From the UHGV virus genome UHGV-1747927: a DNA stretch of 10,821 nucleotides. One strand, 5' to 3'. The translations under genes were made by a program, and so were the position numbers. A model generated the notes under the pieces. That model was not told the origin of the DNA. It searched no databases and saw only the letters and a list, made by a program, of their open reading frames with translations. Shown here in pieces: positions 6,025-10,765 of this stretch (the stretch's first letter is position 1; each line of letters starts with the position of its first letter). This DNA is from a virus.

Positions 6025-6321
6025 TCAGAATTGCATATCAATTTGCTCAGAATCCTCGGTGGCAGCCGGGGATTTTTTCTTTGTGATTCCATCCAATGCA
6101 TACTTAAAAGCCCTGCTAATCGGACTGATGTCTGATGCCATTCCGAAAGCACACAAGACCGAAGCAATAAATCTCCAGTCCGTTCTGCTTATCTTCGATT
6201 CATGACAGCCAATCATCTTTGCCAGACCGCGCTGGGTAAGCGTTGACAGGTTGATGAGTAAATCAGTTTCAGCGCGATCAATTTCTCGCTGTGTTGGCTT
6301 GCTATAACTTGCTTGTGTCAT
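6025..6321 (-). CDS. cII: cII-like transcriptional activator (98 aa)
   Basis: Positioned between cro/nutR and O as in lambda. The C-terminal region (KKKSPAATEDSEQIDMQF) resembles the lambda cII C-terminus as recalled. The rest is divergent. Confidence 0.7.
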   Translation of the reverse strand: MTQASYSKPTQREIDRAETDLLINLSTLTQRGLAKMIGCHESKISRTDWRFIASVLCAFGMASDISPISRAFKYALDGITKKKSPAATEDSEQIDMQF

Positions 6322-6458: not shown

Positions 6459-6659
6459 TTATGCAGTTGTTTTTTTGTTACTTGGGAAGGGCTTTATTTC
6501 TTCCGCATAAACGCTTCCATCAGCGTTTATAGTTAAAAAAATCTTTCGGCCTGCATGAATGGCCTTGTTAATCGCGCTTTGATATACGCCGAGATCTTTA
6601 GCCGTCTTGGTTTGCCCAAAGCGTATTGCATAATCTTTCAGGGTTATGCGTTGTTCCAT
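6459..6659 (-). CDS. cro: Cro repressor (66 aa), lambda-type
   Basis: The protein ([11 protein letters not shown]...[40 protein letters not shown] pattern) matches lambda Cro as recalled. It is divergent from cI across the OR operators. Confidence 0.9.
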
Positions 6660-6756: not shown

Positions 6757-7473
<717 letters not shown>

Positions 7474-7504
7474 TTGTTTTATTTTTCACGTAATAGGATG
7501 ATTT

Positions 7505-7846
7505 ATGACACAATTTCAACTTGCATTAATCGCTAGAGAAGTTGATGGAGAAGTCATCCATCTTCGCACCAAAGACGGATACATCAATGCCACCGCGATG
7601 TGCAAGTCTGCGGGGAAGCTACTTGCTGACTATACACGACTAAAAACAACACAAGATTTTTTTGATGAATTATCACGCGATATGGGGATTCCCATATCGG
7701 AGTTAATTCAATCATTTAAAGGCGGAAGAGCAGAGAATCAAGGGACTTGGGTTCATCCAGACATCGCAATTAATTTAGCTCAGTGGCTATCTCCAAAATT
7801 TGCAGTGCAAGTATCGAGATGGGTGCGTGAGTGGATGTCAGGTTAA
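7505..7846 (+). CDS. KilA-N domain protein (113 aa) in the rexAB position
   Basis: KilA-N/Bro-N-like motifs (INATAMCKSAGK, GTWVHPDIAINLAQWLSPKFAVQVSRWV). AGGA lies 6 nt upstream of the ATG. It starts 31 nt after the cI stop on the same strand. Confidence 0.7.
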   Translation: MTQFQLALIAREVDGEVIHLRTKDGYINATAMCKSAGKLLADYTRLKTTQDFFDELSRDMGIPISELIQSFKGGRAENQGTWVHPDIAINLAQWLSPKFAVQVSRWVREWMSG

Positions 7847-7885
7847 AGAGCGCCTGCCGAACTCCCTATCCACCTTAAGCGGTAT

Positions 7886-8264
7886 ATGACAAACCGAGGC
7901 AGAGTTCCTCATACGCACTTTTCTATGCTTAATGAACTGACGTTTAACTTGGTTGCGCCACTTGAACAGGCCGGATATACGCTGCCAGAAAAAATGGTCC
8001 CTGATATTTCAGAGGGTAGGGTTTTCTCGCAATGGCTCCGTGACAACCGGGGGGTTGAGCCGAAGACATTCCCAACATATAACCATGAGTACCCAGATGG
8101 CCGGACATTCCCGGTACGTCTATACCCAAACGAATATTGCAGATTTCAAACAATACTTCAACGAAGTGTGGCTGCCTCAGTACGCTCCTAAATATTTTGC
8201 TGAACGAGACCAAAGGGCATTGACGTTGATTGAGAAAATCATGCTACCTGACCTTGATTCCTAA
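7886..8264 (+). pseudogene. Downstream ORF with apparent +1 frameshift (frames 7886-8191 and 7953-8264), in frame with KilA-N across a single TAA
   Basis: The 7886 frame looks protein-like up to about 8130 (...RTFPVRLYPNEY). The +1 frame looks protein-like only from about 8130 (ADFKQYFNEVWLPQYAPKYFAERDQRALTLIEKIMLPDLDS) and ends 8 nt before a terminator. The 7886 frame is the KilA-N frame and only one stop (7844-7846) separates them. Confidence 0.4.
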
Positions 8265-8272
8265 ATGTTATT

Positions 8273-8299
8273 CCCGGCCACAGAGCCGGGTTTTCTTTG
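8273..8299 (+). terminator. Intrinsic terminator ending the cI-KilA-N transcription unit
   Basis: CCCGGC, loop CACAGA, GCCGGG, followed by TTTTCTTTG. It lies directly after the stop at 8262-8264. Confidence 0.6.
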
Positions 8300-8335
8300 C
8301 CTCACGATCCCCCTCACCCAAGAACACATAACCAA

Positions 8336-8450: not shown

Positions 8451-8513
8451 AACCATCTGCGGTGATGAATTATCTCTAGCGGTGTTGACATAAATACCAC
8501 TGGCGGTGATACT
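8451..8513 (+). promoter_or_regulatory. pL promoter with OL3-OL2-OL1 operators
   Basis: OL3 is AACCATCTGCGGTGATG (8451-8467), OL2 TATCTCTAGCGGTGTTG (8471-8487), OL1 TACCACTGGCGGTGATA (8495-8511). -35 TTGACA (8485-8490), 17-bp spacer, -10 GATACT (8508-8513). Nearly identical to lambda pL as recalled. Confidence 0.85.
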
Positions 8514-8581
8514 AAACACATCAGCAGGACGCACTACTCACCAGGGCGGTGAATATACAACGATTCAAATATGAATCTACG

Positions 8582-8724: not shown

Positions 8725-9108
8725 ATGACACGCAGAACTCAGTTCAAAGGCAATTCACGTTCTCGTCGTCGTGAGCGTTTAAAGGCAAAGGCATTAGCTA
8801 ACGGCGTACTGGCCCGCGAAGAAGCAATAAGTTCAGAAGTATTACACCGCCCTACTCTAAGCAGAGCGCAGATTCAGGCTAAAGGTACTCACGAAACGCC
8901 TGAGCGCATAGAAGACGCTAAGCCAATTAAGTTCATGGCACAGGACGTGATCTGGCAACAGAAAGAATACAGACGCAATCTGGAGAGAGCGGCCATTGTG
9001 TACGCGAATGAGTTTGGACATAAGCAACCAGAAACTGGTGTATGTCTTCCAAATGTAGCTCTTTACGCAGCAGGATACCGGAAATCAAAACAACTGACGG
9101 CGAGATGA
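8725..9108 (+). CDS. N: N-like transcription antiterminator N1 (128 aa from the Shine-Dalgarno-supported ATG)
   Basis: First gene after pL and nutL. AGGAGG lies 6 nt upstream of the ATG at 8725. The N-terminal arginine-rich motif (KGNSRSRRRERLKAKALANG) resembles the P22-type ARM as recalled. The track start at 8623 would lie inside the leader stem and lacks a Shine-Dalgarno. Confidence 0.7.
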   Translation: MTRRTQFKGNSRSRRRERLKAKALANGVLAREEAISSEVLHRPTLSRAQIQAKGTHETPERIEDAKPIKFMAQDVIWQQKEYRRNLERAAIVYANEFGHKQPETGVCLPNVALYAAGYRKSKQLTAR

Positions 9109-9166: not shown

Positions 9167-9637
9167 ATGACAAAATCATGGAGCGTACCTTTTCCTGAAT
9201 CAGAAACTGAACATGATGGAATGCCTGTTTTCTGGAGATTCCAAGCGACAGTTGAAGAAGATGGAATCAAAATATTCGCACTTCAATATATAGCTTTTCA
9301 TCAGACAGAGCATTATGCATGGTTGGTTCCTGCGCATTGGATTGTTAATTTTAAACCAGCACCAAATCAGTGGTTACAGGAATGGAAACAAAAGAGAAAT
9401 AGATATGCAATTAAGAAAGTAGCAAAAAATGCAGAAAGATCTTTTGCATTCCCAACGAAGAAACTTGCCATTGAGAGTTTATTGCGCCGGAAGAAATACC
9501 ATTTAATGAGAATCAAACAAGATTTGGCTGTTGTATCAACTCTTGTTGATGGGATGAAGAATATTGATACATCAACACCAGATATTGAATATAACTTTGG
9601 ACACAACCAAGAAACAGAAAATTGGGTATTCTACTAG
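9167..9637 (+). CDS. Hypothetical basic protein (156 aa), AT-rich cassette gene 1
   Basis: GAGGTG lies 5 nt upstream of the ATG. The composition is visibly AT-rich relative to the flanks and the C-terminal half is lysine/arginine-rich. No family recognised. Confidence 0.6.
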   Translation: MTKSWSVPFPESETEHDGMPVFWRFQATVEEDGIKIFALQYIAFHQTEHYAWLVPAHWIVNFKPAPNQWLQEWKQKRNRYAIKKVAKNAERSFAFPTKKLAIESLLRRKKYHLMRIKQDLAVVSTLVDGMKNIDTSTPDIEYNFGHNQETENWVFY

Positions 9638-9683
9638 GGCGCATAGCCGACTTTATTTTTGGCATAAACAATATGGGGTAAAA

Positions 9684-10010
9684 ATGAAAGTTTTAATGGT
9701 TTATGAAAATGTTCCAGAGTCGACTGAAATCTATATTTTTGATGCCAATGAAGATGAAGTTAACGATTTGAAATTGTCTCACGGAAATTACACAAATGCT
9801 AATTGTGATGAAAGTATCGAAAAAGCACTATCACGAGTTCTTGTCAGAATCAGTGATCCAGAACATTGTGATGATGATTGGCTTTCTTATTGTGAATCGG
9901 TAAAAACTGATGCAGGAAAATGGAGTAAAAGTAAAGTTGATAACTCAACCCCAATCATTATGAAAGATAGTGATATTGAAATGGTAATAATAACCGGAAT
10001 GATTATGTAG
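9684..10010 (+). CDS. Hypothetical acidic protein (108 aa), AT-rich cassette gene 2
   Basis: ATG at 9684 is preceded by GGGG. The track start at 9564 would overlap the upstream gene. The protein is Asp/Glu-rich and AT-rich. No family recognised. Confidence 0.5.
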   Translation: MKVLMVYENVPESTEIYIFDANEDEVNDLKLSHGNYTNANCDESIEKALSRVLVRISDPEHCDDDWLSYCESVKTDAGKWSKSKVDNSTPIIMKDSDIEMVIITGMIM

Positions 10011-10492: not shown

Positions 10493-10765
10493 ATGACAGT
10501 AGTCATTACTTATCTGGCTGACGATAACGCCAGAAATCGCCGCAGAGCACGCAGACAGGCTCAACGTGAACAGGCAATGCAAGAGCAGCGACTGGCGCGA
10601 AAAATTGCGCTGAAGCTCTCTGGTTGCGTCAGAGCAGATAAAGCAGCATCACTCGGAAGCCTTCGCTGCAAGAAGGCAGATGAATGCAGTGGAAGTATTT
10701 GCCTGCCAAACGTAGCCATTTACGCGGCAGGCTACCGGAAATCAAAACAACTGACAGCGAGGTAA
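10493..10765 (+). CDS. Second N-like protein N2 (90 aa) with a lambda-like arginine-rich motif and the same 21-aa C-terminal tail as N1
   Basis: GGAGG lies 6 nt upstream. The N-terminal ARM (NARNRRRARRQAQREQ) resembles the lambda N ARM (QTRRRERRAEKQAQ) as recalled. The C-terminal CLPNVAIYAAGYRKSKQLTAR is shared with N1. Confidence 0.6.
   Translation: MTVVITYLADDNARNRRRARRQAQREQAMQEQRLARKIALKLSGCVRADKAASLGSLRCKKADECSGSICLPNVAIYAAGYRKSKQLTAR

Follow-up and report, generated by a model that had tools for sequence, protein, structure and literature searches.

A probably inactivated bstA-family gene between cI and the Timm terminator of a lambdoid virus genome

Introduction

BstA proteins are a known family of prophage defence, and their homologues are commonly located downstream of prophage repressors (Owen et al. 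2021, PMC8585504). BstA is produced in the lysogen. When a second phage infects, BstA colocalises with its replicating DNA, blocks the replication and makes the infection abortive (PMC8585504). It is suppressed by aba, a 63-bp DNA element that begins 29 bp before bstA and ends 34 bp inside it, when aba is amplified on the prophage's own replicating genome, and this suppression is homologue-specific (PMC8585504). Early stop codons in BTP1 bstA led to loss of the defence, while aba immunity was kept (PMC8585504). Two further members, BstA-Ec of E. coli NCTC10963 and BstA-Kp of K. pneumoniae Kp52.145, protect against lambda, P1, T7 and P22-like phages, each with a cognate aba of its own (PMC8585504).

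We analysed a 10,821-nucleotide stretch of UHGV virus genome UHGV-1747927 (hereafter the window), in which the gene behind cI is related to BTP1 bstA. The intact form of this gene encodes an N-terminal KilA-N domain and a C-terminal BstA_C domain, as BTP1 BstA has a KilA-N-like domain and BstA_C, and both proteins belong to PHROG 6287. The order of repressor, bstA, terminator, PL and N is also the same in BTP1 and in the window, with bstA right behind the repressor on the same strand. However, BTP1 BstA has 307 aa and the intact form here 253 aa, the N-domain here is a canonical Pfam KilA-N whereas that of BTP1 BstA is only a remote “KilA-N-like” one, the C-domains share only ~29% identity, and the window copy, unlike BTP1 bstA, is interrupted by a stop codon and by the loss of 2 bp. 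The window lacks the BTP1 aba sequence, which contains CCCGCC repeats, and any aba of this locus would be a different, cognate one. BstA-Ec and BstA-Kp are members of the same family and are also adjacent to prophage repressors, but they have ~298 aa and belong to the BTP1-like branch, with a C-domain identity to the 253-aa form that is, as for BTP1 BstA, only about 29%, and the 253-aa clade lies outside the tested proteins. Among the entries of Table S1, part one of two, this clade was not found. The literature after 2021 added no mechanism for BstA.

The same position is occupied by other genes in related phages. In lambda, the interval between cI and Timm contains rexAB. RexAB is comparable with the gene studied here in its slot, its co-transcription with cI and its role as exclusion or abortive-infection cargo of the lysogen, but it has no sequence or domain relationship to BstA; RexAB is a two-protein membrane-depolarising system, and BstA is a single DNA-associated protein. 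In mEp234 and HK106 the cI-Timm interval contains hicAB plus one ORF. Their cI is about 96% identical to that of the window and the Timm, OL/PL and N flanks are the same, but the cargo is a toxin-antitoxin pair and not bstA. Since hicAB is found between the same flanks, the slot is an exchangeable cargo site.

Organization of the locus

The window is a lambdoid early region, and its plus strand corresponds to the leftward direction of lambda. The minus strand carries cII (6025-6321), cro (6459-6659) and the PR promoter (6712-6684), and the plus strand carries a cI repressor gene of 237 aa (6760-7473), an ORF which is annotated as LexA-family protein or cI in identical loci. This immunity module was 97% identical to that of HK97 and 96% identical to those of mEp234 and HK106, which are wild phages with lambda immunity. 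The cI gene is the upstream gene of the bstA' operon (bstA' being the broken window copy), whose transcription is predicted to start from PRM. Comparison of the whole window with complete E. coli genomes gave a coverage of 66% at most, and an Rfam search of the whole window gave no matches.

The N-terminal ORF of bstA' (7505-7846, plus strand) encodes 113 aa with an intact KilA-N domain at residues 13-112 (Pfam E 1.7e-27) and ends at a nonsense codon. This TAA (7844-7846) is located in the interdomain linker, at the place where the alignments have GAA (Glu114) in intact alleles. It is followed by 13 orphaned linker codons (7847-7885, 39 nt, RAPAELPIHLKRY), equal to residues 115-127 of the intact protein, and then by an ORF of 101 aa (7886-8191) which contains BstA_C residues 128-211 up to position 8137 and 17 out-of-frame residues. 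The two ORFs share one frame, as 7505 and 7886 are both 2 mod 3. The site of the 2-bp deletion (TC/CT) is at 8137/8138, where Leu212 was removed and the frame was shifted. The C-terminal 41 native BstA_C codons and the stop (8139-8264) now lie in the +1 frame, within the ORF 7953-8264, with residues 213-253 of the native protein encoded at 8139-8261. The PADLOC BstA model matched both downstream pieces, the first with E 4.3e-12 and the C-terminal one with E 8e-4, so the structure of the downstream ORFs is not a product of chance; the 55-aa ORF of identical loci also has a precomputed weak Pfam match to BstA_C. The Rho-independent terminator Timm (8273-8298, with a stem at 8273-8290 and a T run), homologous to the annotated Timm of mEp234, would end the cI-bstA transcript, and it is followed by the OL operators and PL promoter (8470-8520, hexamers within 8485-8513) and then by N (8725-9108), all on the plus strand.

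This layout agrees with the first-pass annotation, made from the sequence of the window, which described a stand-alone KilA-N gene right after cI on the same strand, a single TAA and 13 codons before an ORF in the same frame, and a protein-like reading which switches to the +1 frame near 8130 and runs to a terminator. The switch is now placed at 8137/8138, and the joined pieces, expected to give about 250 aa, would give 253 aa.

The two lesions

E. coli G1/2 and PhiR5_2, a phage that infects K-12 and for which no paper was found, have intact alleles with 99.4% identity to the window gene. In both, a single 762-nt gene encodes a 253-aa protein and directly follows a near-identical cI, at the same position as in the window. 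The alignment of the window with these alleles showed four differences: a synonymous G to A change at 7513; G7844T, which changes GAA (Glu114) to TAA; the loss of 2 bp (TC/CT) after the TAT at 8135-8137, with the native frame back at 8139; and a C to T change at 8154, which is His to Tyr in the native frame. Comparison with intact homologues, as had been suggested for locating the stop and the indel, thus placed both exactly: the in-frame stop of the window is a nonsense mutation and its +1 frameshift is a 2-bp deletion. The frameshift causes loss of the last two helices (residues 210-248 in an AlphaFold model), which hold several residues invariant in the family.

The broken copy of E. coli strain 81 (L007) had an additional 1-bp deletion in the G-run corresponding to window positions 8045-8050 and a CC to TA change at 8101-8102. 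Together with the 2-bp deletion these changes bring the downstream frame back. The assembly is rich in annotated frameshifts, and the extra changes may be errors.

Identity of the intact protein

The intact 253-aa protein matched PHROG 6287, “BstA abortive infection system, replication inhibitor”, over residues 1-252 with E 1.8e-82, and the PADLOC BstA model over residues 120-237 with E 2.5e-20. In BLASTP its residues 133-251 aligned with residues 171-302 of BTP1 BstA (29% identity, E 5e-15), and hhalign of a 40-sequence profile against BTP1 BstA gave 198 aligned columns with a probability of 97.9%. Homologues carry precomputed Pfam matches to KilA-N and to PF26567, which is called BstA_C by another tool, while the local Pfam and NCBIfam libraries gave no match in the C-terminal half, including none to PF26567. 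The N-domain was also matched by PHROG 129, “transcriptional regulator” (E 8e-24). In an AlphaFold model (pLDDT 90.9) of an intact homologue with 86% identity, a coil connects two domains, and a pLDDT dip together with the coil at about residues 111-122 marks the interdomain linker. No solved structural counterpart was found for the C-domain of this model.

The window has the N-terminal KilA-N (or KilA-N-like) DNA-binding domain of the BstA family. The BstA_C domain homologous to that of BstA-BTP1 is present in the intact allele, and in the window it is present as two out-of-register fragments. Members of the family have both domains in one polypeptide of about 250-310 aa; it is so in the sister alleles of G1/2, PhiR5_2 and MB51 and in 79 of 80 species-representative homologues, and not in the window. 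The position on the same strand just 3' of a repressor, with an own Rho-independent terminator, is also that of the family. Because of the stop and the 2-bp deletion, the window copy is regarded as a pseudogene of the BstA family and not as a working member.

Proteins of ~250 aa with KilA-N and BstA_C were also found far beyond enterobacteria with 52-60% identity (loci L063-L142), in Verrucomicrobiota, Bacteroidota, Planctomycetota, Nitrospirota, Spirochaetia and Gracilibacteria. Such conservation and breadth is unusually strong for a phage-defence gene.

Relatives and spread of the broken allele

A search of 5426 complete E. coli genomes with an 827-bp segment gave 22 close relatives, and the phage collection contributed one more. 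The gene was intact in 17 of the 22 E. coli copies and in 22 of 23 GAA-bearing IMG/VR copies. The 79 uninterrupted species-representative homologues (out of 80) are spread across many phyla, and the best 120 of 2748 database homologues were nearly all about 250 aa long. If a 113-aa KilA-N protein with a separate downstream gene were the normal state, the idea of decay in the first-pass annotation would fall; the homologues are uninterrupted, and the idea stands.

The exact gene sequence of the window was present in 23 fetched copies, and several more had 1-3 changes. The 23 copies came from complete genomes, draft isolates, IMG/VR contigs and gut metagenomes of different projects. Copies with “GGT TAA” that cover the site all have the 2-bp deletion, A7513 and T8154 as well. 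The broken allele is one nearly clonal lineage, which moves with the lambda-type cII-cro-cI module through different phage backbones. The exact 113-aa protein was listed in 1970 blocks of the collection and on at least 1000 contigs, versus 924 contigs for the intact 253-aa protein, and it is at least as common as the intact protein in public data. “Dead” fits the BstA function of the window allele, not necessarily its KilA-N fragment, whose ORF is intact. A scan of the genome-contig collection for the TAA allele found none.

Many carriers of the broken allele (L012, L014, L017, L020, L021) were degraded prophages adjoining the pectinesterase gene ybhC, on the att-lambda side, with truncated N, integrase and DnaB genes.

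A second E. coli subfamily, with about 77% DNA identity and about 257 aa, was found elsewhere in lambdoid prophages of 117 genomes, and both examined copies (L005, L011) were intact. The DNA upstream of it is unrelated to that of the window type, and divergence between the two is greatest over the first ~55 nt of the coding sequence. Such 5' divergence between the subfamilies is compatible with a cognate aba at the 5' end, without proving one.

A mobile module in the cI-Timm slot

By blastn, the mobile bstA module contains the last ~30 nt of cI, the RBS, bstA and the terminator (7441-8301, plus strand). The homology with E. coli H5, which has an XRE-type repressor, covers 7447-8301, and that with MB51, which has another LexA-type repressor, covers 7441-8301. 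Because the same module sits behind two unrelated repressors, bstA is an exchangeable cargo cassette. The cI-proximal slot had been pointed out as a site for exclusion genes, and this is matched with the intact occupant, a BstA-family gene between cI and Timm.

An edge of the module at 27-29 bp upstream of the ATG, like the BTP1 aba, was considered and rejected, as sensitive blastn extended the homology to 7441-7447, inside cI.

In H5 (L003 2940-3030) and MB51 (L004 2700-3030), a lambda-type cI 3' remnant (…ACGTTTGGGTGA) precedes bstA, though the resident repressor is unrelated. The long intergenic region of MB51 contains several copies of a ACAGGAAGCATG-like motif.

Proposed function and its predicted loss in the window

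The window locus is very probably an inactivated (pseudogenised) gene of the bstA family, of the prophage abortive-infection type. BstA is known as a defence family in this location, and its inactivation here is an ordinary event. The intact gene lies directly after cI on the same strand, with an own RBS and the Timm terminator, and because of this position the 253-aa protein is expected to be made in the lysogen from the repressor transcript, like rexAB in lambda. By analogy with the tested BstA proteins, it would accumulate where the DNA of a superinfecting phage replicates, stop this replication and render the infection abortive, and a short 5' DNA element (aba) would spare the prophage's own lytic growth.

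In the window, the cI-bstA' transcript would still be made and end at Timm, while translation would halt at 7846, so that the KilA-N domain would be released as a separate 113-aa fragment. The C-terminal part could at best yield an impaired product without the last two helices, as the 2-bp deletion puts the last 42 residues of BstA_C, several of them invariant across the family, out of frame. Because early-stop mutants of BTP1 bstA lose defence, no BstA defence is expected from the window allele. The exclusion gene in decay which the first-pass annotation had offered as one reading is thus recognised as a BstA-family gene in its intact form, carrying a nonsense mutation and a 2-bp deletion against 99.4%-identical alleles.

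The putative aba-equivalent position, taken from the position of BTP1 aba only, is 7476-7538. According to the variable-site tables, A7513 is inside this stretch, is synonymous and is private to the broken lineage. The family shares no common sequence signature of aba, and the repeats found near the start codon, where an aba-like pattern was sought, were matches of only 6-7 nt, no better than chance. Since the aba-equivalent 5' DNA is kept apart from A7513, the phage may still escape a cognate intact BstA.

Recurrence of the Glu114 stop

The Glu114 stop was found on at least two haplotypes, and probably on three, and the C-terminal ORF is intact in the other lineages. In E. coli H5 and H6 (L003, L008) and in the IMG/VR contig L031, the sequence is “GGC TAA” and belongs to a different haplotype, whose C-terminal ORF is intact. 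This haplotype and its closest intact relative differ at 5 sites, and a second G to T change at the same base is the most parsimonious history. L028 is a recombinant of the “GGC TAA” allele. Protein sequences alone point to a third background in Klebsiella, where a 113-aa protein (T81A) occurs together with C-terminal ORFs of exactly the MB51-type sequence.

Of the 2277 single-base changes that the gene could undergo, only 109 create a stop, so chance is an unlikely reason for a repeated stop at one site. The stop could have spread by short-patch gene conversion between co-resident prophages, the cut at this place could be selected, or it could be tolerated because the in-frame ATG 13 codons downstream could restart the C-domain. 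Other truncations, of 69, 81, 93, 124, 175 and 176 aa, also circulate, and so repeated pseudogenisation of a costly abortive-infection gene is the default explanation. The split form might keep activity in lineages with an intact C-terminal ORF. As the C-domain of the window is frameshifted too, the recurrent stop does not change the verdict on the window.

It is quite unlikely, in our estimation, that the Glu114 stop is a selected allele, recurrent or spread by recombination, which gives a split BstA in H5/H6 and Klebsiella and an anti-BstA decoy or regulator in the window. If it were so, H5/H6 and Klebsiella could make a two-polypeptide BstA re-initiated at the ATG 13 codons downstream, and in the window the KilA-N fragment and the aba-equivalent DNA could benefit the prophage as decoy or regulator. 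With A7513 in the aba-equivalent region, the full-length protein may then have become self-toxic upon induction, which would have selected for its loss.

Alternative explanations

A truncation that is functional, in which the KilA-N fragment, with or without a separate C-domain, is under selection as a decoy or regulator against cognate BstA or, in lineages that lack the 2-bp deletion, as half of a two-polypeptide BstA, is unlikely. The stop lies exactly in the interdomain linker with an in-frame ATG 13 codons downstream, and it occurs on “GGT TAA”, on “GGC TAA” (H5/L031) and, at the protein level, in the Klebsiella allele, a coincidence which the count of 109 in 2277 does not lead one to expect. 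Later changes in the broken lineage were one synonymous change in the N-part versus four disruptive ones in the C-part, though these counts are tiny and some of the changes are homopolymer indels that may be assembly errors. The frameshifted C-domain excludes a two-part BstA in the window lineage, and the broken alleles are almost identical, so that there was little time for decay and an intact ORF says little. One stop could also be spread by gene conversion between co-resident prophages, of which the recombinant L028 is visible. Truncations within KilA-N itself (69, 81 and 93 aa) circulate as well, and the linker split is absent from the 80 species-representative genomes. A few natural N-only and C-only homologues were noted by Owen et al. 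(PMC8585504).

The other explanations concern how the interruption is read and what kind of gene it is. Expression by programmed recoding, with readthrough at 7844 and a +1 ribosomal frameshift near 8137 giving the full-length protein, had been offered in the first-pass annotation and is most improbable. Its geometry would fit, with the pieces on one strand and a joined length of 253 aa, but the 99.4%-identical sister alleles and the family at large are plain single ORFs which need no recoding, the interruption is not conserved among homologues, and the signals would need two very recent origins. Further, the 2-bp gap is a plain loss of bases relative to those alleles, and one nearly clonal lineage alone carries it. 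Positions 8129-8143 show neither a slippery nor a stop-stimulated shift site, and Rfam gave no recoding element. In E. coli, UAA is read as a stop with higher efficiency than the other stop codons. The chance of a sequencing or assembly artefact, raised earlier as a possibility near 8125-8140, is practically nil, as both lesions recur base for base in the 23 fetched isolate, viral-contig and metagenome copies from different projects. A KilA/Ant-type antirepressor, likewise put forward before, or a host-killing gene in place of a defence gene is very improbable: KilA-N domains are known in antirepressors and in P1 KilA, and PHROG 129 matches the N-domain, but the C-terminal domain is BstA_C, the best full-length match is the BstA PHROG, and KilA-C, ANT and Bro gave no match at E <= 1 on the intact protein or the window fragments. 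Co-transcription of an antirepressor with cI in the lysogen would also be self-defeating. An inactivated bstA gene is kept as our reading of the locus.

Implications for annotation

The 113-aa “KilA-N domain-containing protein” of many enterobacterial assemblies is the stump of bstA, and prophages with it should therefore be left out of counts of BstA-armed prophages. The cI-Timm slot of lambda-immunity phages is one more case of exchangeable defence cargo (rexAB, hicAB, bstA), and it shows how fast such cargo gets lost. If the linker stop is selected, this would matter for understanding how the two domains of BstA work together and how prophages avoid the cost that abortive-infection genes of their own impose.

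Genes downstream of the slot

Two complete N-type antiterminator genes were found in tandem on the plus strand, at 8725-9108 (127 aa) and 10493-10765 (90 aa). Between them, at 9167-10010, is a cassette of two ORFs with a GC content of 0.34-0.36, encoding 156 aa (PHROG 1636) and 108 aa (PHROG 4658); neither had a significant PADLOC match. Both N-type genes match Pfam N_peptide and PHROG 271, and their arginine-rich motifs differ while the C-terminal tails are nearly alike.
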